In this document: in pieces, positions 12,489 through 33,996 of the stretch
Layout of the letters: the number at the start of each line of letters is the position of its first letter
Numbering within the stretch: the stretch's first letter is position 1
Sequence record: NC_052655.1
DNA length: 64,000 bases
Reading direction: 5' to 3' (one strand)
Source: Escherichia phage alia
The notes under the pieces: model-generated
Seen by the model: only the letters and a program-made list of their open reading frames with translations
What the model was told of the DNA's origin: nothing
Database searches by the model: none
Position numbers and translations under genes: made by a program

Positions 12489-12499
12489 ATAACTCCTTG

Positions 12500-14147: not shown

Positions 14148-14156
14148 AATAACTCC

Positions 14157-15458: not shown

Positions 15459-15468
15459 CTATATCTCC

Positions 15469-15978: not shown

Positions 15979-16071
15979 ACTTGCCTCCTATTTTGTTAAA
16001 CGAACTTTTATTGTAACACAGAAGAGGCTGTTTTGCAAGTGGAGGGGGGATAATCCCCCTCTTACACCCTG

Positions 16072-16674: not shown

Positions 16675-16701
16675 TGTTTTCTCCTCTTCTATTTAAAATA
16701 T

Positions 16702-16726
16702 GCGCCCCGAAGGGCGCTATGATTTA
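16702..16726 (-). terminator. intrinsic terminator hairpin (GCGCCC-cgaa-GGGCGC)
   Basis: GC hairpin just downstream of the TerD-like stop codon. Confidence 0.4.
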
Positions 16727-17323: not shown

Positions 17324-17395
17324 AATTTATTACCTCCTTTGTTGTTAATTTACGTTGTCTATTTTACTAATCTTTTCTACAAAGTCAAGCGTTTT

Positions 17396-18190
17396 TTACG
17401 CTTTTGCTCCAAATTTTTTAACCCACTCGCCAAACTCTTCAGATAGCAGTTTATCGTAAAGTTCTTCGTCAGACAAGGACAAATCTGCAATACCGATAAA
17501 ATCAACATTATCGTATTCTTTTGCCAAGTCTTTCAGGAATTTAAAGTTTGCATTACCTACACCGACCATAAACCAGTAAACAGGAGTGTTGCGGTGTTTG
17601 TTCAGCAAACTACGTACTGCTGAAGTATCCATGTTCTCCCCGTCAGTTTGGAAGAAAATCATTGCAGGAGTACGATCAACTTGTGCATCAGTATCTACAA
17701 CCTGTTCTATAACAGTACGTGTAACTTCTACAAGTTCTTTTTTACCAGTTAGTTTAGCAAGGAAACCCTTAGCCGGAACTTCTTCATACTCAACGACTTG
17801 GCGTGTAATATTTTTCATAGGTACACTACCGAAGTATGTATCATAGATCTCTTGCATTACTGGAGCATAAGCAGTACCACCATTGATGCAAACATTAGAC
17901 ATACAAGAGCCGACATAATCATCATATACATCAGCCGTTGCAGGAGGCAGTTCAAAAGAAGAACTATTGAAAGCCCACATGTCAATCTGTGCATTATCAT
18001 CAAACTTCATACCAAACGGCAGCAGCTTACCTACAAAATCACTAACAGTGCCATCACGATACAGCTCACACATACTACCCGAAATATCTAAGGCGCTTCC
18101 GACACGAAGAACAACATCGTTAATCTTTTTCTTACGCAGAGATACGGTAAGAGTTTCTTGACGTTTTTTAAGACTGATTTTATTGGACAT
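17396..18190 (-). CDS. von Willebrand factor A domain protein (TerY-like)
   Basis: MIDAS motif 'DISGSM'; N-terminus 'ISLKKRQETLTVSLRKK' echoes the TerD N-terminus. Confidence 0.65.
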   Translation of the reverse strand: MSNKISLKKRQETLTVSLRKKKINDVVLRVGSALDISGSMCELYRDGTVSDFVGKLLPFGMKFDDNAQIDMWAFNSSSFELPPATADVYDDYVGSCMSNVCINGGTAYAPVMQEIYDTYFGSVPMKNITRQVVEYEEVPAKGFLAKLTGKKELVEVTRTVIEQVVDTDAQVDRTPAMIFFQTDGENMDTSAVRSLLNKHRNTPVYWFMVGVGNANFKFLKDLAKEYDNVDFIGIADLSLSDEELYDKLLSEEFGEWVKKFGAKA

Positions 18191-18191
18191 A

Positions 18192-18461
18192 TTATTTCTC
18201 CTTTCTGAGTGTAATGTTAGTAACTTCTAAATCCACTTCTACCATTTCTGTATCATATGAAATACAGCTAAGTTGACCTCTTTGTGAACCGTTCAGACAC
18301 ATTGCTTGGTTTGTATTAACTTTAATAAACACTAAGTTTCTGAACGTATCTAAACCAGAATCTTGATACGCAACATAATATACAAATGTATCACCTGCAT
18401 CAAGTTCTCCAAAACATTTAGGTTCATCTGATTCGTCGTCTTTGATATTAAATTTAAGCAC
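18192..18461 (-). CDS. hypothetical protein
   Basis: 89-aa ORF. Confidence 0.4.
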   Translation of the reverse strand: MLKFNIKDDESDEPKCFGELDAGDTFVYYVAYQDSGLDTFRNLVFIKVNTNQAMCLNGSQRGQLSCISYDTEMVEVDLEVTNITLRKEK

Positions 18462-19017
18462 TATCTTCTCCTTTACCTGCTCTCAAGCCTAAATAGAAAG
18501 CCTCTCTGGTGATCTTTTGCAACTCGTTTAAAGAGATAGTTACAACTAAATCATCTTCAATTTCTAGCTTTGAGTCTTCTTCTGTCTCAATGCAAGTATT
18601 ATGCACTTTGTGGTAAGGATTGTCAACACGTTTAAATTTATTATTTTCAGTGCTGAAGAAGCAATCTGGATCTTCTTCCCCATCACCCCAACCCTGGTTA
18701 GGATCTTCTTCAGATCTTTCTGTTGGGATCTCGCCTGTAAAGTGCTCTTCTAATACCAGAGCAATCCCATCTCCAAGATCGGAAGAGAACATCAAATTAC
18801 AAACTTCTTCCCAAGGCATAGACCACTTAAATCTTTTACGATTGCCATGTTTATCTTCTTCGTTAGAGAAAACACTACCATAGCTATCATAATTCCCATA
18901 CATCTCTTCGATAACCTTACCACCTTTCAAAAGAAATAGGTAGCAAGGAGAGCCATCGAAAGAGGTAGAAAGAGCAGCATTACCAGACTCTTTGCACAAG
19001 AAACTAAAACATCCCAT
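18454..19017 (-). CDS. hypothetical protein
   Basis: 187-aa acidic ORF. Confidence 0.45.
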   Translation of the reverse strand: MGCFSFLCKESGNAALSTSFDGSPCYLFLLKGGKVIEEMYGNYDSYGSVFSNEEDKHGNRKRFKWSMPWEEVCNLMFSSDLGDGIALVLEEHFTGEIPTERSEEDPNQGWGDGEEDPDCFFSTENNKFKRVDNPYHKVHNTCIETEEDSKLEIEDDLVVTISLNELQKITREAFYLGLRAGKGEDSA

Positions 19018-19217
19018 TATACACCAGCCTTAAGATCAATTATAGCCAAAGTTGTTTCAGAGTGTGTTTGCTCGTCTACAGGTGCAGTCATATGATAATA
19101 CAAAAAGTCTTCGGCATCATACCAATCTGACTCTTGACCTTGTTTCCAACCATCAATGAAAGCATCTTCCATAATGGTTTGTAACTCTTCACGAGTTAAG
19201 TGAATATCTTTACTCAT
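19017..19217 (-). CDS. hypothetical protein
   Basis: 66-aa ORF; start overlaps the upstream stop. Confidence 0.4.
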   Translation of the reverse strand: MSKDIHLTREELQTIMEDAFIDGWKQGQESDWYDAEDFLYYHMTAPVDEQTHSETTLAIIDLKAGV

Positions 19218-19450
19218 TACACATTCTCCTCTTTTACCAATTCCATCGTTGAACTATCAAAACCATCTTTAGAAGAATAGGTATAGACAGAACGTAGTTC
19301 TCGCAGGACAGTGAATACATTAGGATCATCTAACCAAGCATCCTGGAGGAGAACATAACGATCTTCATTGTCGTACTGGACGGCAATCATAGAACCAGAC
19401 AGTTTGTAAATTTTAATATTCATAATATATTTCTCCTTAAAGTAGACCAC
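19217..19450 (-). CDS. hypothetical protein
   Basis: 77-aa ORF. Confidence 0.4.
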   Translation of the reverse strand: MVYFKEKYIMNIKIYKLSGSMIAVQYDNEDRYVLLQDAWLDDPNVFTVLRELRSVYTYSSKDGFDSSTMELVKEENV

Positions 19451-20540
19451 GTTTAACAGTTTGAATCATACCATCTTCAAGAGATTGTACTTCTTGGATG
19501 TAATCAATACGAGCAGCACGGGCTTCAGTATTGATTCGGTTAGTTTCTTCTAACATTTTAACTAAGTTTTCTTGATCGCGACGTAATGTTTCAATATCCA
19601 ATACTTGACGATTAGCAAGTTGTGTAGCTTCAATTTGGTTTTGTGCAGCCAGATCACTACCCATTGCAATAGCAGCATTAAATTCGTTCAGTACATTGTT
19701 CTGTGTATCTGCTGCTTTCTTCTGGCGTAGACTTTCAATATACATAGAAAAGTTTGCAGAGTAAGCAGGGATAACATTATTCACAATATTACGGGCTGAT
19801 CGCATCAAACTTGCAGATACTTTCTGCATACTTTGTACACGTGGCCCCATCTGAACACACAGTAAACGCAAGGCTTTCAGGTCTGCAATACGAATTTCAA
19901 GCAGATCCATAGTATCACGAGTACGTTGACGCTCTTCTACTTCATTTTCAGGTAGTGTATTAAGGCGAACTTCTTCTTTTTCATAAGTAGCTGTTAGAAG
20001 CTCTATATCCCTGTTTAAGCTAAGAGCATATTTTGCAATAGCCTCTTCTAAACGTTGCAGATATCGTAAAGAATCTTCTTCTTTTTTCAAGTCTGTTTGG
20101 AGTGTCTTTACCAAACCTTCAATACGATTATTGATGGTGTCAAATTCTCCAAACAAATCTTCTTTCATACCTAAAACTTTCTTAAATAGTTTACCTAAAC
20201 CTTTAGATTGTTTAATAGAATTAGGATCAAGTTGCTTTGCTTGCTTAATAAGTGCGGTTAAACGTTCACTCATTTCATCTCCCTGGGATGAACGCTGGTG
20301 TTTAAGCACTTCGGCATTAAGGTTACGAAGAGTAAGTCCTGCATCAGCACCAACTTGTTCAATCTCTTCACGAGACATTGGAGGCAGCATTTGTACAGGT
20401 CGTGCAACAGCAGGGGCATATACAGGGCTTGCATCCATAGCACTTGGAGCAAACAAAGACTTACTTTTTTCTGTTGTTGCCGTGAATACACTCATTTCAG
20501 ACGGTTTGCTTTTTACGGCACTGATAAAAGGACTGGACAT
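19437..20540 (-). CDS. TelA-like protein (toxic anion resistance family), tentative
   Basis: 367-aa helical protein of TelA size sitting between the TerD/vWA and TerC genes; GGAGG RBS. Family call is by context and composition only. Confidence 0.45.
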   Translation of the reverse strand: MSSPFISAVKSKPSEMSVFTATTEKSKSLFAPSAMDASPVYAPAVARPVQMLPPMSREEIEQVGADAGLTLRNLNAEVLKHQRSSQGDEMSERLTALIKQAKQLDPNSIKQSKGLGKLFKKVLGMKEDLFGEFDTINNRIEGLVKTLQTDLKKEEDSLRYLQRLEEAIAKYALSLNRDIELLTATYEKEEVRLNTLPENEVEERQRTRDTMDLLEIRIADLKALRLLCVQMGPRVQSMQKVSASLMRSARNIVNNVIPAYSANFSMYIESLRQKKAADTQNNVLNEFNAAIAMGSDLAAQNQIEATQLANRQVLDIETLRRDQENLVKMLEETNRINTEARAARIDYIQEVQSLEDGMIQTVKRGLL

Positions 20541-20608
20541 TCAATTTCCTCCATATTCTTTAGTAGATGGTGATACCTCTGTACCACCATCATAACACAA
20601 ATTAAGTA

Positions 20609-21460
20609 TTAAACAAACATATCTAAATAATTTGTAGTAATAAATGCTCCATCTGCTTCCAGATTAACATAACCAGTAGCATTAGTGGTTAAGAAATCCA
20701 GATCGAAGGACTCTTTAACACCCCGTACCTCAACACGAGAGATATCGAATACAGGTAGTGTAACAGCCTCTTCGTGCAATACCGTACCTTTGTAGGTTGC
20801 CTTAATGATAAACTTGATATTACCCGTTCCAGCATCATACAAAACACTTTCAAACCCTTTGAGAGTATACTTATCACCAGAAGTGAAGTGCAAAGTTGCT
20901 TTGTTTACAGTACGTTTCTTACGAGGAGTTCCTTTCACACGTTTATGATCACTACGTTTTTTGTACTTAGGAATGAATACAAACGATACACTATCAAGAA
21001 AGGTATCAACATCAAGGATTTTAATATCCTCTGTTGCAGCAAATTTTGAAGTCGTTGCATCAAAATGCTTTTCCCTGCGATCATACATAAAGATATCAAA
21101 ACGATCTTCTAAATCAAACAAATTATGTATCTTAATTTCAGAATGCTTGCACATTGCAGCAACCTTAAACTCTTCAAAACGTGGGTGTTCTACCAGTTCT
21201 TCAAGTTTTACACCAAAGACAGTATATGGCTTCGAAGTTTTTTCTGGCGTTGGCATTACAGAAGCATAATCACCGATTGCGCTTTTAAAGCAAAATTGTT
21301 CTTGACCTGTATTTTTACCAACGAATTTACAATATTCGTCATCGTGCATACTTTCTTTGGTAGTACCAACAAACTCAAAACCATCTTTATTCTTCTCAAG
21401 AATTTCTTGATTAAAGATCCAACCTTCCAGGCGATACACTTTACCAACTTCTAGTTTCAT
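20609..21460 (-). CDS. hypothetical protein
   Basis: 283-aa ORF. Confidence 0.5.
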   Translation of the reverse strand: MKLEVGKVYRLEGWIFNQEILEKNKDGFEFVGTTKESMHDDEYCKFVGKNTGQEQFCFKSAIGDYASVMPTPEKTSKPYTVFGVKLEELVEHPRFEEFKVAAMCKHSEIKIHNLFDLEDRFDIFMYDRREKHFDATTSKFAATEDIKILDVDTFLDSVSFVFIPKYKKRSDHKRVKGTPRKKRTVNKATLHFTSGDKYTLKGFESVLYDAGTGNIKFIIKATYKGTVLHEEAVTLPVFDISRVEVRGVKESFDLDFLTTNATGYVNLEADGAFITTNYLDMFV

Positions 21461-21495
21461 CTGTTTCTCCTTCTTATTTAATCTGTATTAAATTA

Positions 21496-22086
21496 TTAAC
21501 GACGACGTGAGCTACTAAAACTACGTTTCGACGAAGAATAACTTTTCGAAGACTTACTATAAGAGCTAATAGGACTTGAGTAAGACTTACGAGCAGAGTA
21601 ATCACTATTCACTTTTGTTGTTGATGGGCGTGAATACGTTTGTACACTTTGCTGCTTAATTGTGTTTTGTTTAGTGGTTGTATATGTATTTACAGGTTTA
21701 TCATAAAAACTACGCTTTTGTGTTGTATATGATTTACTGTTAGTTGTAGGAGCAGCATTGTTATTAATAATGGTTGTGTTGCTACCACCATCTCTATAAC
21801 CACCACCGCCACTATTACCACTCAACATATGACCAAGAAGCATACCTGTAGCAAAGTCACCTACACCAGAAGAACCACTACCACCTCCTTGCACAACAAC
21901 TGTGGAAGGTTGTGCAGGTGCTGCTTGAACAACTTGAGGTGCAGGTTGATTTACATATTGTTCATCTACCATCTGATTTGGTGTTTGTTGGTAACGTTGA
22001 TTTTGTACATTTTCAGAATCATCACAACCTACCAGCAATGCACTACCTAAAACAACTGCAACAATAAAAGATTTAATGTTTTTCAT
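21496..22086 (-). CDS. putative lipoprotein, low-complexity Gly/Ser/Thr/Tyr-rich
   Basis: 'MKNIKSFIVAVVLGSALLVGC' is a signal peptide with lipobox LVGC; start moved to the internal Met with a GAGAGG RBS. Confidence 0.55.
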   Translation of the reverse strand: MKNIKSFIVAVVLGSALLVGCDDSENVQNQRYQQTPNQMVDEQYVNQPAPQVVQAAPAQPSTVVVQGGGSGSSGVGDFATGMLLGHMLSGNSGGGGYRDGGSNTTIINNNAAPTTNSKSYTTQKRSFYDKPVNTYTTTKQNTIKQQSVQTYSRPSTTKVNSDYSARKSYSSPISSYSKSSKSYSSSKRSFSSSRRR

Positions 22087-22279
22087 TTGTAACCCTCTCA
22101 TTTAAAGTCTCAACACAATTTTTAAAATCCCTAGAGAAACAATACATCTGTTCTCCGTTCCTGTTGATAGTAATTGTATGGTTATCAATATATGTTGTCA
22201 AGATAAAAATCAAACAAAATAACCCTAAAGCAAAACAAATATTTTCAAACAGAATCCAAAGAACACGTAAAACCACCAT
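22073..22279 (-). CDS. hypothetical small membrane protein
   Basis: 68-aa hydrophobic ORF. Confidence 0.35.
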   Translation of the reverse strand: MVVLRVLWILFENICFALGLFCLIFILTTYIDNHTITINRNGEQMYCFSRDFKNCVETLNERVTNEKH

Positions 22280-22289
22280 CAGATCACCT

Positions 22290-22310
22290 CAACAAAGCCC
22301 CCGAAGGGGC
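22290..22310 (-). terminator. intrinsic terminator hairpin (GCCCC-cgaa-GGGGC)
   Basis: GC hairpin 8 nt downstream of the TerC-like stop. Confidence 0.45.
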
Positions 22311-22318
22311 TTAATGAA

Positions 22319-23296
22319 TTAAGCAACAGTCTGGTCTTCTTTTTCAGGGAAGATTAAACTTGCAACAACACCCAACCCAAGAGTACCTAACACAATATAC
22401 ATACTGATCGTCGGATCAATGTGTGCTGGCAGGAAACTCATTTTTGCGTGCAGAGTTTCTGCAAACGGGTGATACATCAGTTTTACACCCACAAATACCA
22501 GGACTACGATAACTGCTTTCTCCAGATGAACCAAATACTTCAGTGCAACACTAAGAACAAAGAACAGAGCACGTAAACCTAAGATTGCACAGAGCATCGA
22601 AGAGAACACCAGCAGAGGTTCTTGTGTCACTGCAATTACTGCTGGAACAGAGTCTACTGCAAAGATTACGTCAACCATTTCCATTACAAACACACAAACC
22701 AGAGCCGGAGTTGCTACACGAACACCATTCTTGATTGTGAAGAACTTCTCACCATCCATCTGATCAGATACAGGGAACAGCTTACGAACAATGCGAGTAG
22801 CCCAGTGTTTAGAGTAATCAACTTCTGCATCATTATCTCCAGCGAATACCATTTTAGCCGCACAGAAAAGGATGACAGCACCGAAGAAGATATTAACATA
22901 CCAGCCCAAACTCAACAAGTAAGTGCCTACTGCTACAAACACACCTCGGAAGACAATCGCACCTGCAATACCCCAAAGTAGAATTTTGTGCTGCAAGTGT
23001 GTGCTTTTAATACCAAAACTTGCGAAGACTGCCACAAATACTACTAAGTTATCTACAGAAAGAGATTTCTCCAACACATACCCACTCAAGAACAAGCTCG
23101 CAAAATCAGCACCGTGTTGGAAGTATACAAAACCATAGTAGGCTAATGATACCCCAATCCAGAAAATTGACCAACCAACTGCCGATTTAAATGAAATCTC
23201 TTTGTTTTCTCTGTGTCCAAAGAAATCAATACAAATCGACAAGACTAAAATACCCACTAAAACAACCACATCAATAATTGGGAAACCCAGTTGCAT
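22319..23296 (-). CDS. TerC-family integral membrane protein
   Basis: Multi-pass hydrophobic protein with 'LSVDNLVVFVAVF' and 'DVIFAVDSVPAVIAVT', the two signature motifs of TerC; AGGAGA RBS. Confidence 0.8.
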   Translation of the reverse strand: MQLGFPIIDVVVLVGILVLSICIDFFGHRENKEISFKSAVGWSIFWIGVSLAYYGFVYFQHGADFASLFLSGYVLEKSLSVDNLVVFVAVFASFGIKSTHLQHKILLWGIAGAIVFRGVFVAVGTYLLSLGWYVNIFFGAVILFCAAKMVFAGDNDAEVDYSKHWATRIVRKLFPVSDQMDGEKFFTIKNGVRVATPALVCVFVMEMVDVIFAVDSVPAVIAVTQEPLLVFSSMLCAILGLRALFFVLSVALKYLVHLEKAVIVVLVFVGVKLMYHPFAETLHAKMSFLPAHIDPTISMYIVLGTLGLGVVASLIFPEKEDQTVA

Positions 23297-23373
23297 TCTT
23301 TTCTCCTCTTTAATGCGGAGGACAATCCTCCGCTCTATGTCGTATACTATAAACTGTTTTTAAAGAAAGTCAA

Positions 23374-23622
23374 CTAGTTCAGTTCTGTAATTTTAAGTTT
23401 ATCTTCTTTGTTAATGATAGGGAAAGCTACAGCATCACCTACATCATCAATAAAGCAAATAGCAAGACCACCTTCCACTTTGCTAACCTGACCATTAAAG
23501 GCGTGATACGGGGCAGGAACAATATCTCCATCTTCAAGGAGAATAGCCTCATAAACCTTACCAATAGTACAATCACGAGTGTTTTTAAATTTTTCAAGCA
23601 CTTCAACATTTACTTTACGCAT
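23374..23622 (-). CDS. hypothetical protein
   Basis: 82-aa ORF. Confidence 0.4.
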   Translation of the reverse strand: MRKVNVEVLEKFKNTRDCTIGKVYEAILLEDGDIVPAPYHAFNGQVSKVEGGLAICFIDDVGDAVAFPIINKEDKLKITELN

Positions 23623-23636
23623 ATAAAGATCCTCTC

Positions 23637-23843
23637 TTATTTGTTAGATTGAAAGATACCACGAAGTACCGCAAGAATGAACGTCACACAGACTACACTC
23701 CAAAACGTTACAGGAACATGATGCCAGTCTAAACCGATAATGTCAATCATATAGTTGTATGCTAAAAGCAGTAGCCAACTAGGGATTAACACAATCAAGA
23801 ACACAACAATAAAACAACCTAATACTGCTAAAACACCTGCCAT
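23637..23843 (-). CDS. hypothetical small membrane protein
   Basis: 68 aa, two hydrophobic helices. Confidence 0.4.
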   Translation of the reverse strand: MAGVLAVLGCFIVVFLIVLIPSWLLLLAYNYMIDIIGLDWHHVPVTFWSVVCVTFILAVLRGIFQSNK

Positions 23844-23852
23844 ACTTTCTCC

Positions 23853-24569
23853 TTATTTCAGTTTGTAAACAATTACATTTAAACCTTTGTTCACTAGAGT
23901 TTCTTCGATCATAAGTTTTACAATATTCCAAGAACCTCCAGCCAAACCACAACCAAGCATTGGTAAACCTACAATTTTACCGCCTGAAGATACAACATCG
24001 TCTCCCATACTATCTAACGCATTGTAGATAGCTTCATAATTCAGGTCACGCTTACCTTCCTCACGACGACTATAACCATATTGTCCATATAAATTATAAA
24101 TTGTCAAATTGTTTTCTGTATATTTGGTAAACGTACCTAATTTTTTATAATCACCACGTTTAGTGGCACAATCTGCTTTAAACGCACCAGGCCACTTGCT
24201 TTTAATTTTTGGTGCAATACCACTACCCATAGTGCAAAAACAGTTACAGCAGTGTGCTATAGCGTCTATATCGCCTCTCTCGGCTGCTGCTAAAAGATCA
24301 CCGTATACCTCAATGATACCTGCCGGATAACTTGTTACAATTTCATCTTCCCAATACATTTTCTCTACACCACCGATCAGTGCAAAGTTTTGTGTAATGC
24401 GATCATCAATATAGTTAAGACCTGAAACATACACAGCGTATTCATCCTGTGCTGTAATACCTTGCACACGAATTCTTAAGACACCATCTTTATCTGTTGC
24501 TACACGCCCAAAATCTTTTTCTGTAATATTGGTGATAGGATCTCCGAAAGTCATTACTTTATTAGACAT
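23853..24569 (-). CDS. macro-domain protein (putative ADP-ribose binding/processing)
   Basis: 'DAIAHCCNCFCTMGSGIAPKI' and 'GKIVGLPMLGCGLAGGSW' resemble macro-domain motifs; start set at 'MSNKVMTF', just past the upstream stop. Confidence 0.55.
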   Translation of the reverse strand: MSNKVMTFGDPITNITEKDFGRVATDKDGVLRIRVQGITAQDEYAVYVSGLNYIDDRITQNFALIGGVEKMYWEDEIVTSYPAGIIEVYGDLLAAAERGDIDAIAHCCNCFCTMGSGIAPKIKSKWPGAFKADCATKRGDYKKLGTFTKYTENNLTIYNLYGQYGYSRREEGKRDLNYEAIYNALDSMGDDVVSSGGKIVGLPMLGCGLAGGSWNIVKLMIEETLVNKGLNVIVYKLK

Positions 24570-25419
24570 AATAATCCCCTTTAACATTAGGTTTGTTGAT
24601 AATGTTGCTTTCAAAAAATTGACGTAGGAAATCAAAGTTCTCTTTGTATTTTTCAATGTTATTGTAACCTTCTGCAAGGCAACCAAAGAACAGTTGTTCT
24701 ACATAATACAAAGGAAGTTGTGAAAGTGCAATTTTAAAATCAACTTCGCTTTGACTCATTAGATACTTAATAGGACGAACCAAACATTTAGCATCAGCTT
24801 CTTGCTTAATCATTTTAATAAAAGCTGCCAGATTATTGATATAGTTGAAGTTAAGTGCAGCTTCGGTGTTGGCTTCTGTACCTTCATACTTTGCAAAGTA
24901 CAGGAAAAACGTATCGTTTTCAACACCTTCTTTGTCTAAAATTTCAATAAGTTTTTCTTCGTGTGTTCCTGTAATATTAACATCATCAATGAAAATCAGA
25001 GTTTTATTACCCCAGAAATCACGATTGATAGAGAAAGTGTCACCATCGATCAAAGCCTTACGATCTTCTTTGCTAAGAAATCCATAATCATTGATATAGC
25101 TCACTTTACGATGAACGATATCCCACTCCACTGCTTTACCCCCTTTGATAGAGATTAGGTAGTTGAGGTGATCTACAAAATGTTCAGATAACACTGTAGC
25201 TGCATTTTTCACATAGTTATATGGAGATGGAATAACAACAAAACTTTCATTTACCAGTCGTTCTTCATACTTAGAAAAGAAACTTTCAGCCAGAATGCGT
25301 CCCATTCTTTTTGCTGCCTGGTTACTACCAAACTTCAGTTTGGAATAATCTGCAATGTTAAATTTTGCTTCCTTCAGGTTAGTAAAAGTATTAGCAAAAT
25401 GTTGAATTTGATTACGCAT
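24562..25419 (-). CDS. type I phosphoribosyltransferase-like protein
   Basis: PRPP-binding-like motif 'TLIFIDDVNITGTH'. Confidence 0.6.
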   Translation of the reverse strand: MRNQIQHFANTFTNLKEAKFNIADYSKLKFGSNQAAKRMGRILAESFFSKYEERLVNESFVVIPSPYNYVKNAATVLSEHFVDHLNYLISIKGGKAVEWDIVHRKVSYINDYGFLSKEDRKALIDGDTFSINRDFWGNKTLIFIDDVNITGTHEEKLIEILDKEGVENDTFFLYFAKYEGTEANTEAALNFNYINNLAAFIKMIKQEADAKCLVRPIKYLMSQSEVDFKIALSQLPLYYVEQLFFGCLAEGYNNIEKYKENFDFLRQFFESNIINKPNVKGDYYV

Positions 25420-26068
25420 TAATAAGTTCCTCTTTTTTAAGTTTAGCCAACAAGTCTTCTGGATTAATAATATGACAGAACTTCATCCCTATGTCAACAG
25501 CTTTCCCATCATAGATCAAACTATCTCCAACGTGTAAAATCTCCTCTGGTGCGAGATCAAACGTTACCATTTCATCAAAAGAGAGTTTAAAAAACCTGGG
25601 ATCTGGTTTACACAAGCAAAACTCATCAGAAAAATGCATAAAATCGAATGGTAATTTTGTCAAGCCAGAATATACAGCTAAGAAACTACCAGGTACAAAA
25701 TTGGTATTGCTTTTAATACTCAAAGAATAGGTTGAACTTAGCTCTTCCAACTTCTTGCAAAGTTCAGGGTTTAATATTGGAGGATGTTTTATAAACATTG
25801 CTAAACAGTCTCTTTTTAACCCATCTACTTTATCAAGATCAATGTTCAAATGAGCAGAAAGTGTTTCCCAAGCATTTCTAGATGTTCCACAAATGCCTTT
25901 TTCTGCTTTTAAATCCAGGAGAGTTTTTACCTCTTTATATACGGTAGCTGCTTCTGCCTCAGAACAAGAGGCATACTCGGCAATAACCTTGTTGCGCTCT
26001 TCTGCATACAAAGGATTAGCAGTAATAAGAGTATTCCATACATCAAAAGAAATATGCTTAACAGTCAT
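25412..26068 (-). CDS. HAD-superfamily hydrolase
   Basis: 'FDVWNTLI' (motif I-like) and 'VGDSLIYDG' (motif IV-like); start moved to 'MTVKHISFD' with a GGAGG RBS. Confidence 0.5.
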   Translation of the reverse strand: MTVKHISFDVWNTLITANPLYAEERNKVIAEYASCSEAEAATVYKEVKTLLDLKAEKGICGTSRNAWETLSAHLNIDLDKVDGLKRDCLAMFIKHPPILNPELCKKLEELSSTYSLSIKSNTNFVPGSFLAVYSGLTKLPFDFMHFSDEFCLCKPDPRFFKLSFDEMVTFDLAPEEILHVGDSLIYDGKAVDIGMKFCHIINPEDLLAKLKKEELINA

Positions 26069-26237
26069 TTTTAATCCTCCGTCCAAAAGAATATCATCTG
26101 CTTAATTTTATTGATTTCTTGATGTAGTAACTTTCCAGCATGTGATTGATCTTTAATATTGACAGCAAGAATTTCAAGTTCCGTTAGTTTTTCTTGGATA
26201 GCTTTATATTCATCATCTGTAAGCATTTTCTTCCCCT

Positions 26238-26441
26238 TTAGAATGGTAATCTTTGTATGTCACTTATCCCCACACCCAGAAGTCTAGCAATATCCTTATC
26301 TAAAAGCAACTCTTTTTGTTCTAAAATGTTAATCAAATCTCCTAATACTTCTTTAATGTCACGATCATTTTTAGCAACGTGACCACCTGCGGTATCAACT
26401 TTATCTTTAAAAACAAAATAATGATCCATAATACCCTCCAT
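26238..26441 (-). CDS. hypothetical protein
   Basis: 67-aa ORF; no clear RBS. Confidence 0.3.
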   Translation of the reverse strand: MEGIMDHYFVFKDKVDTAGGHVAKNDRDIKEVLGDLINILEQKELLLDKDIARLLGVGISDIQRLPF

Positions 26442-26450
26442 ATAAATAAA

Positions 26451-26475
26451 GGAGGCTTTCGCCTCCTTTTATCAC
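26451..26475 (-). terminator. intrinsic terminator hairpin (GGAGGC-tttc-GCCTCC)
   Basis: Perfect 6-bp stem with flanking T-run, directly downstream of the ATPase stop. Confidence 0.5.
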
Positions 26476-27636
26476 TTAGTAAGAACGACCACCAAACACA
26501 TACTCTGTGTAGTTTTTACGTTCTTTGTTTTTAATAACAACTTCAATGTTGTTACCTTTATCATCGGTGAACATAAAGTGATAACCGTCACCACCCATTG
26601 TACGGATGTGTTTTTCATCATACGTCAGCAAGATACGGTCTACACCCCAGTAGTAGTCACCTTCTTCATCTTTATCTTCTACGGTAACAATCCCTTCCAT
26701 TTCAGGAAGATGCTCTTCACCTAGTTTATGGTCTACAGCTACAACATAACGATTACCGCTAAACAAACCTTGTGCTGTCATACCGTCAATATCGGTATCT
26801 GCCGAAACATCTCCTGTACGATCTACACCGTTAACTTTCAGAAGTTTAACCTCTTTTGCAGCATAGCGGTGTTCAGTAATACTGATACCCATTAATGCAA
26901 GTGCATCAGAGAATTTGTCATTAGGATAACGGTTAAGTTCTTCTACTAATGACTGAACAATATCAAAGTTCAAGTCCACGGACAGATTATAAAGCGTTTC
27001 AAAATCTGGTAAAAAGGCTTTGTTCTCCAGATTTTTAGCCAGATAATCATCCATAGTAGCTTTAGGTAGTTTCTTATAGCTAAAGCTGTAGAAAATACGG
27101 CTAGGGCGATTACGCAAAAATTCTGATACATAACCATCATTTTTAGTCAATACAAACAGCTTGTCATAGCCACCAACACCATCCAGCAGGGTAAGCAAAC
27201 CATCCTGTGCATCTTTTTCAGCATACAGTTTATCAAATTCATCGATCATAATCATCACAGGTTGTGTGATTTTAGACATAAAATTGATAAAGCCTTCACC
27301 ATTAAAAGCACTACCGATAGAAATAGTAGGAATACCCATTTCACGAAGAGCAGAAGACAGCATTTTAGCTTGCAAAGTTTTACCGCTACCCTTCGTACCC
27401 TCAAGGAGAACACCTGTGTTTTTACCTTTGCGGCTAAGGAACGTCTTGATAATACGTTCTGATTTATCATCAGTATCACCGTATGTTACTGAAGGGACTT
27501 CCATATCGTTTTTAGGATACAGGAAGAACTCACCACTTTGAGTAACACCTACACCAAAAGTTCCTGCTGGAATTTCTTCGATATCTGTACCAGACTTCTG
27601 ACGCAGGAAGATTTGATTGCCGAATACTGTAAACAT
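26476..27636 (-). CDS. P-loop NTPase (AAA-like), paralog A
   Basis: Walker A 'GTKGSGKT', Walker B 'MIMIDEFD'; about 50% identical by eye to the plus-strand ORF at 41617-42744. Confidence 0.7.
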   Translation of the reverse strand: MFTVFGNQIFLRQKSGTDIEEIPAGTFGVGVTQSGEFFLYPKNDMEVPSVTYGDTDDKSERIIKTFLSRKGKNTGVLLEGTKGSGKTLQAKMLSSALREMGIPTISIGSAFNGEGFINFMSKITQPVMIMIDEFDKLYAEKDAQDGLLTLLDGVGGYDKLFVLTKNDGYVSEFLRNRPSRIFYSFSYKKLPKATMDDYLAKNLENKAFLPDFETLYNLSVDLNFDIVQSLVEELNRYPNDKFSDALALMGISITEHRYAAKEVKLLKVNGVDRTGDVSADTDIDGMTAQGLFSGNRYVVAVDHKLGEEHLPEMEGIVTVEDKDEEGDYYWGVDRILLTYDEKHIRTMGGDGYHFMFTDDKGNNIEVVIKNKERKNYTEYVFGGRSY

Positions 27637-27656
27637 AGTTTTCTCCTCTATTTAAT

Positions 27657-28127
27657 TTAGTCAGATTCCCAAATGTTGTCTTTCTTAATCCACATTCGTT
27701 GATTATCTGAACCTCTATAACGTTTCGTTGTTGGTTGATTCATATCATACTTACCATCTATCACTATGTCAACCAGTTTTTTAATTTTTTCTGGAATTTC
27801 TTCAAAAAGATATCCTGTATATAAGACAATATCTTTTTTGTTTCCAAAACAATCTCTTACCTTCTCAAGAACATACTCTACAGTGTCAATGTTCTCTTTG
27901 TCAAGAGGTTCACCACCTAAAACTGTTAATCCTTTAATGAAAGGTCGAGATAAATCTTTCAAGATAAGATCTAATGTTTCAGTAGTGAACTCTTGTCCGT
28001 AGTTATACGACCAGGCTTTCTGGTTGAAGCAGCCACGGCAACCGTGGCTACAACCGCTCACCCACAAAGAGCATCTTACACCGTCACCGTTGAGCATGTC
28101 AACAGGTTCATATCCGGCATAATTCAA
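27657..28127 (-). CDS. nrdG: anaerobic ribonucleotide reductase activating protein (radical SAM)
   Basis: 'CSHGCRGC' radical-SAM CxxxCxxC cluster; 156 aa; immediately downstream of NrdD. Confidence 0.8.
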   Translation of the reverse strand: MNYAGYEPVDMLNGDGVRCSLWVSGCSHGCRGCFNQKAWSYNYGQEFTTETLDLILKDLSRPFIKGLTVLGGEPLDKENIDTVEYVLEKVRDCFGNKKDIVLYTGYLFEEIPEKIKKLVDIVIDGKYDMNQPTTKRYRGSDNQRMWIKKDNIWESD

Positions 28128-29923
28128 AAATGTTTCTCCCTTTCCAGTACCTCTTGCATTTTACCTTTATTATAAGGGCGAGAGTTAGGGGCAGACAGGT
28201 ATCCTGACACTCTTCTGATTACAGATATAGATTCTTCCTCATGATTGCCACAACTTGGACACTCGAAGCCTTTAGCTGTTGCCTTAAATTCACCATGAAA
28301 ACCACATTTGAAACACTGATCTACAGGTTGGTTCACGCCAAAATAAGGAATTTTGTTGTAGGCATAATCTACAAGAGTTTCCAGTGCTTGCAAGTTATTT
28401 TTAAGGTTTGGTGTTTCTACATAACCTATGTTCCCACCATTACTGATTTGTGCAAAACCTTCCTCATAATCCCACTTTTGGAACGGGGTAGTGTGCATCC
28501 ACACAGGTTGATGGAAAGAGTTTGTCAAGTAGTCACGATCAATAGAACCAGGATAGCGATCATTTAATGCTTTGGCAAATTTATAGCACAAGGATTCTGC
28601 TGGTGTTCCATACAAACTAAAAGCTAAACCAGAACGTTCTTTAAATGTGCCACAGATATCCTTCATATATTGAAGGATGTTTTTACCCATTGCTTTTGGA
28701 TTGGTGTTACCTGGGTATAAAATCTCCATAGCTTCTGCTAAACCTACATAACCGATACTAATAGAGGCATAACCACCTTCGAATAGTTTACCAATCTCTT
28801 CATTAGCTTCTAGTCGAGCTAAAGCCCCTTCCATAAACAATGTAGGGTTTTGGGATGCTTTGGTATGTCTAATACGGTTAACACGTAGTATATGTGCCTT
28901 ATACGCCATCTCCATATGTTGTTCCAACAGTTCAGTAAATAAGATGCCCTTTTCACGGGACTCTGCTGCAATGATAGGTAAGTTTAAAGAAACTACACCT
29001 AAGTTGAAACGACCATCATATTTTTCACCTTGCTCTGTTGCATAGTATGACAAGAAGCTACGGCAACCCATGCTTGTGACGCGACCATCTGAAGATCCTG
29101 TAACTTCTTTGTTTAAAGGTACAGAGATAAAATCAGGATAAATGCGTTCAGCACAACACTCCATTGCCAGTTGCTTCAAATCATAGTTTGGATCGCCAGC
29201 TTTCATGTTAACACCATCTTCCAAGAAGAAGATAACTTTAGGAAACACAGGAGTTACCCTATCTTTTCCTAATCCTTGTTTGTGCACCATTAGGTAGTTT
29301 TTAGTGATCATTCTACCAAAAGCAGAGGTATCCAAACCTAAACTAATTGTTATAAAAGGTGACTGACCATTTACACTCATTAGGGTGTTCACCTGGTAGA
29401 TTAAAGTTTGCATTGCATCATAGACCTGTTTATCTACCATACGCATAGCAATATCATAATCGCCAACATCGGCATATATTTTGTTAAAACTTGCTTTAAC
29501 GTATTGACTAAGCCCAGTATCAATATGTGCACAAGTTTGTCCACCATATTGGCTAGAAGCTACTGCTTGAATAATTTGAGTTAGGACAGTAGTTGCTACA
29601 CCTATAGACTTTGGTTTTTCAATATGTGCATTACCAATACGGAAACCGTTCTCAAGCATATCTTGGTAATTTACCAGGCAACAATTAGTTAGAGGTGAGA
29701 GTAAATAATCTAAATCGTGAATGTGACCATACCCACTTTTGTGCCATTCTGCCAGATCATCCGGTAAAATATGGGTCATTGCCATGTGCTTGCTTAGGAT
29801 ACCTGCTAGTAAGTCTCGGTGAGTATTAACAATCATTGCAGGTTTGTTTGCATTTTCACGAGTAAATTCTTCGGATGTTTGTTCGAGGAATCCGATTACA
29901 TCCTCATATAGTTTTTGGGTCAT
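28124..29923 (-). CDS. nrdD: anaerobic ribonucleoside-triphosphate reductase
   Basis: C-terminal glycyl-radical motif 'RVSGY' preceded by the Cys cluster 'CFKCG...CPSCG'; start moved to the Met with a GGAGGA RBS (track start 29953). Confidence 0.9.
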   Translation of the reverse strand: MTQKLYEDVIGFLEQTSEEFTRENANKPAMIVNTHRDLLAGILSKHMAMTHILPDDLAEWHKSGYGHIHDLDYLLSPLTNCCLVNYQDMLENGFRIGNAHIEKPKSIGVATTVLTQIIQAVASSQYGGQTCAHIDTGLSQYVKASFNKIYADVGDYDIAMRMVDKQVYDAMQTLIYQVNTLMSVNGQSPFITISLGLDTSAFGRMITKNYLMVHKQGLGKDRVTPVFPKVIFFLEDGVNMKAGDPNYDLKQLAMECCAERIYPDFISVPLNKEVTGSSDGRVTSMGCRSFLSYYATEQGEKYDGRFNLGVVSLNLPIIAAESREKGILFTELLEQHMEMAYKAHILRVNRIRHTKASQNPTLFMEGALARLEANEEIGKLFEGGYASISIGYVGLAEAMEILYPGNTNPKAMGKNILQYMKDICGTFKERSGLAFSLYGTPAESLCYKFAKALNDRYPGSIDRDYLTNSFHQPVWMHTTPFQKWDYEEGFAQISNGGNIGYVETPNLKNNLQALETLVDYAYNKIPYFGVNQPVDQCFKCGFHGEFKATAKGFECPSCGNHEEESISVIRRVSGYLSAPNSRPYNKGKMQEVLEREKHF

Positions 29924-29934
29924 TAATCCTCCGT

Positions 29935-29964
29935 GGAAAATAAAAGCCAGCATTAAGCTGGCTT
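29935..29964 (-). terminator. intrinsic terminator hairpin (AAGCCAGC-attaa-GCTGGCTT)
   Basis: 8-bp stem followed by a T-run on the minus strand, downstream of gene 30013-30963. Confidence 0.5.
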
Positions 29965-30012
29965 TAGGGTGGATCTTTATTTTAAATCTTTTTCGTAAGA
30001 TTGTCCTTGATC

Positions 30013-30963
30013 TTAGTCAAGGTTTTTGGTAATACGTGTACAACCGTCAGAAGTCAAACCGTCAACTTGAGTTTCCCAAGTGCCATGAATATTTCGGAAC
30101 AATGTTGTTACACCTTTTGGTTCATTAATAATGATTGCCATAACAAGTTTAGGATCGATAACAGACATAATCTTTTCCTCAATACCCTCTGTAATAACAT
30201 TATTACGCACAATATTAATTACATCTTCTTGTACAGTAAGGGTACTTACGTTCTTAAGAGTATATACCTGCTGCGTAGTGTAAATGATACGAACATAGCT
30301 TACAGAACGAGTAGGCACAGGTTTACGCGGTCGGCGAAAACGTGGTTTTGGTGAAGATTCAGTCTTACTTTCATTTTTTGAATAATACTCCTCAAACAGT
30401 TTAGTAAATGTTTTTACATCAACTACAAACCGATCTTTCCTATATGGAGAATTCTTATGTGCACCATTAATACCACTGTTTTCATCGAAGAAAGTAATGT
30501 TTTCTTCAGTTGAATACATTAGATAATGATCTGCATTTTTCCAATGTGGTTGTGGACAATGAGGATTACAAACGGAAAGCAAATAACTAATATTTTCTTC
30601 CGTGGCCTCAGTATCCAGGAAACACGTATTATGCACAGTCAGTTGTACTTTTTCAGCCATATCTTTTTCTTTATCCTCTTTAGTAAGATATTCAGTACGA
30701 ATAATCTCCAGAAAACCTTCAGGTGTTACTTCCATAAATTTATATTCAGGATGAAGCTCCATATATTCAAACCCACAACCATCTAACTGCTGTAGGAAGT
30801 TAGGGTAGAAGAACAAATCATTAACACTGTGAATCAGATCATTGATTTCTGCTTCAGTTGTGTAACCAAAACTCTTGTGAATTGCTTCGTTAAGAATATG
30901 CAGGATACCCATCTCTTCTGCTGCTTTTTTAACTTCCAGTTTATTAGCGTAAAATGCAATCAT
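30013..30963 (-). CDS. hypothetical protein
   Basis: 316-aa ORF. Confidence 0.5.
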   Translation of the reverse strand: MIAFYANKLEVKKAAEEMGILHILNEAIHKSFGYTTEAEINDLIHSVNDLFFYPNFLQQLDGCGFEYMELHPEYKFMEVTPEGFLEIIRTEYLTKEDKEKDMAEKVQLTVHNTCFLDTEATEENISYLLSVCNPHCPQPHWKNADHYLMYSTEENITFFDENSGINGAHKNSPYRKDRFVVDVKTFTKLFEEYYSKNESKTESSPKPRFRRPRKPVPTRSVSYVRIIYTTQQVYTLKNVSTLTVQEDVINIVRNNVITEGIEEKIMSVIDPKLVMAIIINEPKGVTTLFRNIHGTWETQVDGLTSDGCTRITKNLD

Positions 30964-32258: not shown

Positions 32259-33995
32259 TTAGTTTACCAGTTTATTTATGTCTGGTAAAAGATTTATTTC
32301 ACCTAAGAAATCACCTTCACCTTCCTCTAGCCAACTCTCATATGCTTGTGCATGATTATAGTTACCATCAAAAGAATCTGCAACAAATTTTTCTACAGTT
32401 TTTCGAGATGTGCCAGCGCCAAATACACCAAGTTTAATACCATTGATCGGTAAAGTGGTACTTGTGGGTACTTTCTCTGTTGCAACACGGTTGATATCTA
32501 TAATCTCCTGTACGGTTGTGTTCCATTGTAAGCATTTAACACAACGGGTATGCGCTACATACAGTAGGTTTCGCTCTGCCTCTTCTAGTCCTACCCATTC
32601 ACCAGTCTTTTTATCATAGTTGGAAGGAAAATCATTAGCAACAATAACCTGATCCCACTCCAAACCTTTAGACTTATGTGCTGTAGTCAGTGTGACTTTT
32701 GCTGTAGGAGAATTTCTATGCGTTCTAAGTGTATGTGCTATAGTGTTTGCCTTACCAGAAACTACGATGTTTAACAAGCGTTTAGCATCTGGATCAGCCT
32801 CTGCACACTCAACAAATTCATTCCAGTCTGCGTAAGGTAATACAGTTTCATGTTTTACTTTCTCAATATCTCCTCTCCGAAGAGCATTAACACTATCTAC
32901 CATAGAGATAAAATCCCTGGTATCTACGTTAATAATAATTTCTTCCCCATCTGCAATACGATCCATTGCCTCCATAAGCAAGGTTAAATTCTTGCGAAAG
33001 ATGATAGTGTAAGGTTTTGTATAGTCTACAACATCTGATTTGTAGCTACCTACTACAGTATCAAAGCCTTTACCAACCAAAGGGTGACGCAAAGGTTCTT
33101 TATCGCTTAAAATCATATTGGCAATGTTTGCCACTTTGGGGCCAAAACGGAAGCAAGCAGTTAATGGAAGCTCTGCCCCATATGTAGATGTTTCCTTCAT
33201 CATATTTTGGCTTCCACGGAACTGGTAGATGCTCTGATATTCGTCACCCACCACTACTACTTGTTTTGCAGATTTAGCATTTCGCAGAATAGACAAAAAT
33301 GCAGGGTTAACATCCTGGAATTCATCACCAAAAATAATATCATAACCAAGATCAGCACCAGACAATTCAAATAATTTTACATAGGTGTCATGCGTCATCA
33401 AAGTATCTGTGTTAGGATCGATGCGCTCTCGCCACAATTGTTTTGCATACTTAACTACTTCTGTAATTAGTTTGTGTTCGTTAATACCTTTTCTTTTAAT
33501 ATCTGCAAGATGTACACTAGGAAAATGTTTACGGCTGATAAAAGGATCATCCGAAAATTCAAACTTACCTACGGTTTGTTTGATCATTAAACCAATCATA
33601 GCACGAGTTAAAAGTGTTTTCCCTCGTTTATCAATAAGATTATTAATCTTAAATTTCTTTGCTATCTCACTACCTGTACCTGCAACGTTAACATACTGTC
33701 CTTCTGGTCGTGATAGTTTTGCACGTAAACGATGATCCAGGAATTGATAGCAAATAGAATGCAATGTACGGCATTCTACATTTAGTGGCATCTTACGTCG
33801 TGCTTCTTCTGCCATGCTTTTATTGAAAGCTAAGTAAAGAATGCGATCTTCTGTACTGTTAGCCAGCAAATAAAGTGTTGACGTTTTGCCTGATCCAGAT
33901 TTAGCTTGGATAGTTAAAAAGCGATGGTCTGGAAAAGCCTCCTTAATAGCTGTTTGCTCTTCTGTTGGAGTGAAGCTCAACTCTTTCTTAGCCAT
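32259..33995 (-). CDS. UvrD/PcrA-like superfamily 1 helicase
   Basis: Walker A 'AKSGSGKTSTL', 'VVVVGDEYQSIYQFRGS' (motifs II/III); start moved to 'MAKKELSF'. Confidence 0.8.
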   Translation of the reverse strand: MAKKELSFTPTEEQTAIKEAFPDHRFLTIQAKSGSGKTSTLYLLANSTEDRILYLAFNKSMAEEARRKMPLNVECRTLHSICYQFLDHRLRAKLSRPEGQYVNVAGTGSEIAKKFKINNLIDKRGKTLLTRAMIGLMIKQTVGKFEFSDDPFISRKHFPSVHLADIKRKGINEHKLITEVVKYAKQLWRERIDPNTDTLMTHDTYVKLFELSGADLGYDIIFGDEFQDVNPAFLSILRNAKSAKQVVVVGDEYQSIYQFRGSQNMMKETSTYGAELPLTACFRFGPKVANIANMILSDKEPLRHPLVGKGFDTVVGSYKSDVVDYTKPYTIIFRKNLTLLMEAMDRIADGEEIIINVDTRDFISMVDSVNALRRGDIEKVKHETVLPYADWNEFVECAEADPDAKRLLNIVVSGKANTIAHTLRTHRNSPTAKVTLTTAHKSKGLEWDQVIVANDFPSNYDKKTGEWVGLEEAERNLLYVAHTRCVKCLQWNTTVQEIIDINRVATEKVPTSTTLPINGIKLGVFGAGTSRKTVEKFVADSFDGNYNHAQAYESWLEEGEGDFLGEINLLPDINKLVN

Positions 33996-33996
33996 T

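Follow-up and report, generated by a model that had tools for sequence, protein, structure and literature searches.

Escherichia phage alia carries a Ter-linked HAD and phosphoribosyltransferase gene pair beside a macrodomain and an AAA+ ATPase that probably act separately

Ter genes are widespread and clinically common, and their mechanism is obscure. Four genes lying close to Ter genes in Escherichia phage alia (sequence record NC_052655.1) were analysed within a stretch of 64,000 nucleotides (nt) of its DNA, referred to here as the window. Between positions 23,853 and 27,636 they encode a HAD-superfamily enzyme, a ComF-like phosphoribosyltransferase (PRTase) of the PRTase_3 family, a macrodomain protein and an AAA+ ATPase. 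The region is probably a composite of three functionally separate units, namely the HAD-PRTase_3 pair, the macrodomain and the AAA+ ATPase. The initial annotation had grouped all four genes in a single module, which was not supported, since adjacency of the macrodomain gene is limited to one phage subfamily and the ATPase family is widespread in phages that have neither Ter nor PRTase genes. The analysis rests on gene identities, folds, motifs, neighbourhood statistics and homology, from which substrates, products and phenotypes are inferred. All four predicted open reading frames (ORFs) were found on the minus strand, and the identities first proposed for their proteins were borne out by profile, motif and structure matches. 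A region of 5.4 kb around them shares 98-98.6% DNA identity with over 50 Escherichia phages in the genus Justusliebigvirus, and such conservation, at about 98% in more than 50 genomes, implies that they are not chance ORFs.

In order to establish in which company the PRTase gene occurs, 47 loci with a relative of the PRTase were sampled from annotated phages, IMG/VR contigs, metagenome contigs and bacterial genomes, representing about 25 independent lineages, and their ORFs were scanned with the window proteins. At every one of the 47 loci the PRTase gene is immediately preceded, on its own strand, by a gene for a HAD homologue. The pair was recovered in phi92-like and phAPEC8-like phages, Klebsiella phage KP13-16, Rhizobium phages, the Caulobacter jumbo phage CcrColossus and diverse contigs of uncultured phages of up to 500 kb, as well as in cellular genomes, on chromosomes and plasmids of Rhizobiaceae (including pRL10) and in Bacteroidota. 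When the genes within about 6 kb of the pair at 22 representative loci were clustered all against all, without bias towards any family, the only recurrent neighbours besides the HAD were TerC (10 loci), TerD (8), TelA (7) and vWA-TerF (5), and a Ter gene is present within 10 kb of the pair in about 15 of the 25 lineages. In Bacteroidota the pair is embedded in an operon of the order TerD-TerD-x-HAD-PRTase_3-OmpA-TerC. Both families are rare, TerC homologues being limited to 175 of 50,697 phage records (about 0.35%) and PRTase_3 to 155, which places the association far beyond chance. No recurrent Nudix gene was detected near the pair by a Nudix-box regular expression combined with the neighbour clustering. 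In the window itself TerD, TerC, TelA and a TerF-type vWA protein, by which a Ter system is recognised here, are all encoded, while no TerB, ATP-grasp or C-C lyase component of the full biosynthetic module was found among the 20 neighbouring ORFs scanned with Pfam, some of which have no Pfam match. The earlier proposal of a Ter-associated PRTase and HAD pair was thus strengthened by the PRTase_3 match, the invariant pairing and the Ter genes as sole recurrent neighbours, and a pair predicted to make or process a small molecule in association with Ter proteins is the best-supported reading of these two genes.

Some loci of the sample deserve mention in their own right. Replicons of Rhizobium, Sinorhizobium and Ensifer (loci L027-L038) carry the pair at about 40% identity, with a ParA-like gene near and no Ter or phage genes nearby; one of them, L035, is plasmid pRL10 of Rhizobium johnstonii 3841, and Rhizobium phages have the same pair. 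Two records of Campylobacter phages A150/C3 (MG065639 and MG065656) hold a PRTase protein 99% identical to that of E. coli phi92-like phages, and Campylobacter phage B15 (MG065650) matches the query as phAPEC8-like phages do, at 64.7% identity; the host labels of these three records look wrong, or the records contaminated.

The two genes of the pair appear to be translationally coupled. The HAD and PRTase ORFs overlap by 8 nt, sharing the sequence ATGCGTAA, and the PRTase and macrodomain ORFs likewise overlap by 8 nt, sharing ATGTCTAA; both overlaps are of the form ATGNNTAA, and each is preceded by a Shine-Dalgarno sequence. A 51-codon ORF ends 2 nt before the HAD start, and the ribosome-binding site for HAD, GGAGGA, lies within the end of this ORF. 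The overlapping stop and start codons noted in the initial annotation were accordingly found at the HAD/PRTase and PRTase/macrodomain junctions and not between the ATPase and HAD genes, which are separated by two small ORFs (67 and 51 amino acids, aa) and a stable hairpin.

The PRTase matches the Pfam family PF15610 PRTase_3 ("PRTase ComF-like") with 143.7 bits (cut-off 28.7), and the match extends over positions 14-264 of the 264-position profile. Its residues 141-154, LIFIDDVNITGTHE, form a binding loop for phosphoribosyl pyrophosphate (PRPP) with the expected hydrophobic strand, two acidic residues and T-G-x-T. All 38 sequences compared, the most distant at 36% identity, share loop residues D145, D146, T150 and G151, and the flexible loop, 104-RKVSYINDYGFL-115, is almost invariant over the same range. 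An AlphaFold model computed from 38 homologues is confident (pLDDT 92) and displays the type I PRTase fold, so that the protein is modelled as a ComF-like type I PRTase with an extra C-terminal helical domain at residues ~190-275. Compared by phmmer with Adps and Namat of the Justusliebigvirus phage ALITA it gave negative scores, and Pfam returned PRTase_3 alone; judged by sequence, PRTase_3 is neither PRPP-synthetase-like, as Adps is, nor NAPRTase/Nampt-like, as Namat is. As to the choice between a PRPP-synthetase-like protein and a base PRTase, posed at the outset, a type I PRPP loop is present, with no likeness to PRPP synthetases and no match to a known base-PRTase family. The catalytic residues whose absence would have spoken against the initial annotation are present in the PRTase and in the macrodomain alike.

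The partner enzyme belongs to HAD subfamily IA and scores 26.3 bits against Pfam Hydrolase, 0.1 below the cut-off of 26.4. Its best solved-structure match is PDB 2om6 (E 1e-8), an uncharacterised protein and the sole solved relative with the same FDVWNTL motif. In the window protein motif I reads SFD9-V-W11-N-T13 (family form S-[FL]-D-x-[WY]-x-T), and motifs II to IV are represented by 120-SNTNF-124, by K154 in 153-CKPD-156 and by 181-GDSLIYD-187. All of the 21 aligned copies from phages and viruses keep the nucleophile Asp (D9), motif II SN[TS]NF and motif III KP, and most keep motif IV, GD....D; of the 15 cellular copies, in which motifs I and IV were checked, 14 have motif I and 13 have motif IV. 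HAD phosphatases and mutases have their general acid/base, an Asp, two positions beyond the nucleophile. The window protein has Trp11 there, so that the DxDxT form is absent, and Trp occupies this position in all 21 phage and viral copies except one, which has Tyr (L022), and in 14 of the 15 cellular copies, the fifteenth being truncated. With Trp in place of the general acid the enzyme is probably no textbook phosphatase, and its motifs point to a phosphoryl chemistry that is probably other than textbook hydrolysis.

Taken together, these features suggest how a translationally coupled two-enzyme unit might operate within the Ter gene network. The ComF-like type I PRTase would transfer 5-phosphoribose from PRPP to a base-like nucleophile, and the HAD would then act on a phosphate of the substrate or of the product. 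The outcome would be a nucleotide- or nucleoside-like small molecule that cooperates with Ter proteins at the envelope of the infected cell, for instance in the control of membrane or ion stress or in the exclusion of competitors. A more far-reaching version is offered tentatively and is rather unlikely: the pair would be a self-sufficient two-enzyme synthase of the Ter small molecule, the exchange of Asp+2 for Trp in the HAD would signal a non-canonical chemistry (phosphotransfer or a trapped intermediate, not simple hydrolysis), and lytic phages would deploy it with TerD, TerC, TelA and vWA to reprogramme the envelope or ion state or to exclude competitors.

Ter-associated PRTase and HAD genes were reportedly predicted by Anantharaman, Iyer and Aravind, in Mol Biosyst in 2012, to make a "nucleoside-like metabolite". 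The window genes resemble those in their Pfam family, their HAD partner and their TerD, TerC, TelA and vWA-TerF neighbours. They differ in forming a minimal two-gene pair with no ATP-grasp, TIM-barrel lyase or TerB among the scanned neighbours, in the Trp at Asp+2 of the HAD, and in that the pair is also found without a nearby Ter gene. Phage Ter systems with 'signal biosynthesis' PRTase and HAD genes were described by Iyer et al. 2021 (PMC7824862, section 3.4.10), with Acinetobacter phage vB_AbaM_ME3 and Caulobacter jumbo phages as examples and related smaller tailed phages also having such systems, and a role in competition with superinfecting phages was proposed for them (PMC7824862). Phage alia is like those phages in being lytic and in combining TerD, TerC, vWA-TerF and TelA with a PRTase and a HAD, and unlike them in belonging to a non-jumbo coliphage lineage of 146-150 kb; the invariant HAD-PRTase order, the HAD motif and the neighbouring macrodomain are not analysed in that study (PMC7824862). 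No experimental study of the PRTase_3/HAD pair of phages turned up in a literature search.

The macrodomain protein consists of a confidently modelled macro fold at residues ~85-238 preceded by an 84-residue extension. By BLASTP it is 41% identical over 154 aa to Adpp of Vibrio phage Gary (E 2e-36) and 34% identical to a Tequatrovirus Tk.4 orthologue (E 4e-21); the best solved match by sequence is PDB SCO6735 (E 3e-15), and Foldseek with the model returned TARG1 (TM score 0.90), BT1257, DarG (0.80) and Poa1p (0.71-0.74). SCO6735 cleaves thymidine-linked ADP-ribose from DNA and needs Asn27 and Gln85 (PMC9411070). Its residues N27, Q85 and G87 correspond to N109, Q163 and G165 of the window protein. 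Among 37 family members N109 and Q163 are invariant, as are G206, G208, L209 and G212 of the loop 206-GCGLAGG-212, in which A210 and G211 are nearly so. Two members of the family have been characterised: Adpp, of the NARP1-AP operon, is an ADP-ribose-1''-phosphate phosphatase that lets NARP1, an NAD+ reconstitution pathway, overcome aRES defence (Osterman et al. 2026 preprint, 10.64898/2026.01.28.702374), and T4 Tk.4, renamed AdfM, is required against DarTG2 (HIDEN-SEQ preprint, 10.1101/2025.11.20.689424). With Adpp the window protein has the motifs AHxCNCF, YNLYGQY and GCGLAGG in common, and its lineage also encodes Adps and Namat; it differs in lying ~62 kb from NARP1, in being coupled to an unrelated PRTase and in its extra 84-residue N-terminal region. 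AdfM is likewise a homologous stand-alone phage macrodomain, its identity to the window protein being lower than that of Adpp. The ALC1-like hydrolases SCO6735, BT1257, DarG and TARG1 are the best solved-structure matches, and the residues essential in SCO6735 are conserved. Unlike in TARG1 and DarG, the catalytic Lys (K80/K84) is replaced by Gln and D125 of TARG1 by Ala, and SCO6735 also has neither; the C-terminal DarT-binding domain of DarG is missing as well. PADLOC gave a single match, DarG for the macrodomain protein, and none for the PRTase, the HAD or the Ter proteins; the NCBIfam DarG model scored 48.9 bits against a cut-off of 250, with the macro part alone matched.

Unlike the HAD, the macrodomain is not a constant companion of the PRTase. 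Its family has matches in 2,971 phage records, nearly all without PRTase_3, and is widespread as a stand-alone protein of ~150 aa. Apart from L026, an incomplete phAPEC8-like contig of a metagenome-assembled genome that was set aside in this count, a macrodomain gene lies within 1 kb of the PRTase gene in 3 lineages only, all Stephanstirmvirinae: it follows the PRTase gene in phi92-like phages, in the phages of loci L012 and L013 and in phAPEC8-like phages, and KP13-16 of the same subfamily has none near its PRTase gene. In a rough neighbour-joining tree the window protein clusters with NARP1-associated macrodomains, and AdfM nests among these, so that sequence cannot assign Adpp versus AdfM activity to it. 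The best-supported reading is an independent counter-defence enzyme of the phage Tk.4/AdfM/Adpp family, predicted to process ADP-ribose. It might convert ADP-ribose-1''-phosphate to ADP-ribose and thereby feed the NAD+ rebuilding of the NARP1 of its lineage, it might remove DarT2-type ADP-ribose from thymidines in phage DNA, or it might do both. The N-terminal 84 residues are confined to phi92-like phages and a single further lineage, and their AlphaFold2 model has a pLDDT below 50, to which no fold could be assigned. At L012 (9505-10071) and L013 (4024-4590) a separate ORF of 188 aa stands between the PRTase and macrodomain genes. The N-terminal region (window 24569-24315) weakly resembles the N-terminus of this ORF (E 0.01), which suggests that the phi92-type protein may have arisen by a deletion fusing the 188-aa ORF and the macrodomain gene. 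The C-terminal half of the 188-aa ORF was also considered MazG-like on account of EExxE-like motifs, an assignment that was dropped for lack of Pfam support.

NARP1 consists of Adps (PRPP-synthetase-like) and Namat (NAPRTase/Nampt-like), and NARP2 of Nampt and Nmnat; PRTase-type chemistry and ADP-ribose metabolism are a theme common to both pathways and the window genes, and NARP1 occurs in the same lineage. Phage ALITA carries the NARP1 genes, one Prs-like and one of the NAPRTase family, at 94-2792, and in its coordinates the macrodomain region lies at ~65 kb, ~62 kb away. The original NARP1 tables include phi92 and PaulScherrer. In the window no NARP1 or NARP2 genes were found, and no Adps or Namat ORF in particular. 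The table of the aRES study, in which a macrodomain was counted only if it lay no more than two genes from NARP1, has no entry for phi92-like phages (10.64898/2026.01.28.702374); the window macrodomain gene thus falls outside the operational definition of Adpp, by which it would lie within two genes of Adps/Namat. Phi92-like phages may nevertheless run a 'split' NARP1-AP, in which an Adpp-type macrodomain is encoded ~62 kb from Adps and Namat. The ADP-ribose or NAD counter-defence role suggested in the initial annotation consequently fits the macrodomain (41% identity to Adpp, NARP1 in the lineage) and not the adjacent PRTase, which has no similarity to Adps or Namat; the best-supported form of the NAD idea is one that applies to the macrodomain together with the distant NARP1 genes.

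The AAA+ ATPase scores 29.4 bits against Pfam AAA (cut-off 21.2), belongs to PHROG 2376 and carries Walker A GTKGSGKT at residues 80-87 and Walker B MIMIDE at 128-133. In the 34-nt gap after its stop codon lies a GC-rich hairpin with a 9-bp stem, a GAAA loop and a U-rich tail; its RNA fold has -18.8 kcal/mol (z -5.25), and none of 200 shuffled sequences was as stable. The ATPase gene adjoins the HAD-PRTase pair in only 2 of the ~25 lineages. Members of its family were found in 302 phage records, and Lactococcus, Bacillus, Staphylococcus and crAss-like phages without Ter or PRTase genes are among the carriers. A second AAA ATPase of the window, at 41617-42744 (+), is a paralogue (phmmer E 5e-77; own Pfam AAA match E 1.5e-9), and phAPEC8-like phages have a single ATPase match ~15 kb from the PRTase gene. 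From these comparisons the copy next to NrdG is read as a lineage-specific paralogue or insertion, which would have no part in the function of the pair.

It was of interest to weigh the composite reading against explanations that join or sever the same genes differently. The tight coupling of the array from the 51-aa ORF through HAD and PRTase to the macrodomain gene, with its 8-nt overlaps, could mean that the HAD, PRTase_3 and macrodomain proteins form one ADP-ribose/NAD pathway, in which the macrodomain would free ADP-ribose from an immune product and ribose-phosphate or intermediates derived from nicotinamide would then be converted by the PRTase and HAD, which would amount to a third NAD+ salvage route or serve to destroy an immune signal. 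The macrodomain gene follows the PRTase gene in phi92-like, L012/L013 and phAPEC8-like phages, its family serves NAD+ reconstitution elsewhere, and Rhizobium phages have a Nudix gene two genes downstream of the pair, with a further one 6 kb away at L008. Such a pathway is nonetheless quite unlikely, given that about 22 of the 25 lineages, including KP13-16 of the same subfamily, have no macrodomain gene next to the pair, that the unbiased clustering yielded neither a Nudix nor a macrodomain family, that PRTase_3 is unlike Adps and Namat and has a type I ComF-like fold, not the type II fold of Nampt, that the lineage already has a complete NARP1, and that no nicotinamide mononucleotide adenylyltransferase was detected among the genes from the ATPase to TerD scanned with Pfam. 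It is unlikely, too, that the pair is an autonomous unit of nucleotide metabolism or salvage, a set of auxiliary metabolic genes for replication or DNA modification whose proximity to Ter genes reflects incidental co-transfer. This would agree with its position directly downstream of the anaerobic ribonucleotide reductase genes NrdD and NrdG in the window, with its occurrence alone in 10 lineages, Rhizobiaceae plasmids and chromosomes among them, and with the weak similarity of the HAD to nucleotidases such as YjjG and to pyrimidine 5'-nucleotidase. Co-localisation with Ter genes in about 15 of 25 lineages, compared with the ~0.35% of phage genomes that have TerC, argues against co-transfer by accident, and the link spans unrelated phages as well as Bacteroidota operons in which the pair stands between TerD and TerC; moreover, the PRTase matches no known base-PRTase family. 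Very improbable is a PRTase_3 that is a ComF-like non-enzyme binding nucleic acids or nucleotides, with the HAD as a regulatory partner: the complete PRPP loop and the highly conserved flexible loop persist down to 36% identity, a pattern typical of active enzymes.

Several points weigh against the three-unit composite and the Ter role of the pair. To our knowledge the Ter 'nucleoside-like metabolite' has never been identified, which makes the proposed product of the pair hypothetical. Ten of the ~25 lineages have the pair without a Ter gene within 10 kb, and in Rhizobiaceae it sits amid ordinary metabolic genes. The Trp at Asp+2 makes any chemistry proposed for the HAD tentative. For the macrodomain, Adpp and AdfM are inseparable in the rough tree, so that any substrate proposed for it is tentative too; the PRTase/macrodomain overlap of 8 nt and the adjacency of these genes in two genera could reflect a functional link and not mere synteny; and NARP1 lies outside the window, its presence in this phage being inferred from relatives 98% identical over the queried 5.4 kb.

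The window comes from a phi92-like E. coli myophage. Its relatives, the BASEL phages PaulScherrer, EmilieFrey and JohannJBalmer among them, are likewise phi92-like and belong to the subfamily Stephanstirmvirinae. All genes of interest are on the minus strand (Table 1), in the transcription order NrdD, NrdG, AAA ATPase, 67-aa ORF, 51-aa ORF, HAD, PRTase, macrodomain, 68-aa membrane ORF, 82-aa ORF and TerC, with TelA, the TerF-type vWA gene and TerD farther downstream. Homologues of the 67-aa ORF stand upstream of the HAD gene in phAPEC8-like and L012/L013 phages only, and the 68-aa membrane protein, downstream of the macrodomain gene, is conserved within the subfamily (phAPEC8-like and L012/L013 loci). 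The genes had been placed immediately upstream of TerC on the same strand; the strand is as described, and between the macrodomain gene and TerC lie two small ORFs and a gap of 77 nt that contains a promoter-like site. This site, TTGACT-16-TATAGT, agrees with the consensus at 10 of 12 positions, and phAPEC8 has an annotated promoter at the equivalent position.

Table 1. Positions of the features discussed, in window coordinates
Feature	Position	Strand	Basis or remark
AAA+ ATPase, 386 aa	26476..27636	-	Pfam AAA, PHROG 2376; judged outside module
Terminator-like GC-rich hairpin	26448..26469	-	Consensus scan, RNA fold
67-aa ORF, first gene of tight array	26238..26441	-	PHROG 17780 E 3e-39
51-aa ORF	26071..26226	-	PHROG 24275 E 1e-39
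HAD-superfamily (subfamily IA) enzyme, 218 aa	25412..26068	-	PHROG 14393 E 3e-119
ComF-like type I phosphoribosyltransferase, PRTase_3 family, 285 aa	24562..25419	-	Pfam PF15610
Macrodomain protein, 238 aa	23853..24569	-	Pfam Macro E 2e-7; PHROG 335 E 7e-65
Predicted membrane protein, 68 aa	23637..23843	-	PHROG 16065 E 9e-42
82-aa ORF	23374..23622	-	PHROG 17459 E 1.5e-41
Sigma-70-like promoter match	23346..23373	-	Consensus scan only
TerC/Alx-family membrane protein, 325 aa	22319..23296	-	Pfam TerC E 1e-38; TIGR03718
TelA-family protein, 367 aa	19437..20540	-	Pfam TelA E 5e-35; PHROG 5890 E 1e-136
vWA domain, TerF C-terminal type, 264 aa	17396..18190	-	Pfam PF10138 E 5e-39
TerD-domain protein, 198 aa	16727..17323	-	Pfam TerD E 4e-28

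TerC scores 323.6 bits against the NCBIfam model TIGR03718 of TerC/Alx metal homeostasis (cut-off 246.4). Unlike bacterial alx, the phage gene has only a 77-nt leader with the promoter-like site and no Mn2+ riboswitch; an Rfam search of 15000-30500, which covered the yybP-ykoY/Alx-type riboswitch, returned nothing other than a sub-threshold chance match to mir-15. Three conserved proteins without a Pfam family are encoded amid the Ter genes, at 16072-16674 (-), 20609-21460 (-) and 21496-22101 (-), with 200 aa, 283 aa and 201 aa respectively, the last being a Ser/Gly-rich putative lipoprotein. The 201-aa protein recurs in L018, an unrelated Ter-carrying phage contig in which the 200-aa protein has a weak match, and these interspersed proteins may be Ter partners not described so far.

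Other genes of the window were noted in passing. At 35363-35773 (-), ~8-10 kb upstream on the same strand and ~10.8 kb from the macrodomain gene, lies the gene for a protein of 136 aa in which Pfam detects a clear DUF4326 domain (E 1.7e-21). At 11544-14720 (-) four glycosyltransferase-like genes, labelled 'disaccharide synthase' or 'glycosyltransferase' in relatives, lie beside a primase/helicase, and one has a sub-threshold match to a TET-associated glycosyltransferase (TAGT; 24.1 bits compared with 27.5); glycosylation of DNA or of the surface is a possibility for this run. A UvrD/Rep-family helicase of 591 aa at 32259-34034 (-) has a PaulScherrer orthologue annotated as an intein-containing precursor of ~920 aa, and the window protein appears to be without that intein.

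Both kinds of element considered here, the Ter-linked pair and the phage macrodomain, have already been described. The new points are modest: the HAD gene strictly precedes that of PRTase_3, in phages and in cells alike; position Asp+2 of the HAD holds a near-invariant aromatic residue, Trp; the pair is autonomous on Rhizobiaceae replicons; and the phi92-type macrodomain is placed in the Adpp/AdfM family, NARP1 being encoded elsewhere in the genome. The analysis corrects the current gene labels "orotate phosphoribosyltransferase", "phosphatase" and "hydrolase" and sets the macrodomain with the Adpp/AdfM counter-defence family; surveys limited to operon-adjacent macrodomains may miss capacity of the NARP1-AP type. 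For the Ter network, the candidate biosynthetic machinery is narrowed to one invariant two-gene unit, and because this pair is present in culturable phages of E. coli K-12 (PaulScherrer, EmilieFrey and JohannJBalmer of the BASEL set) the question of the Ter metabolite becomes directly testable.

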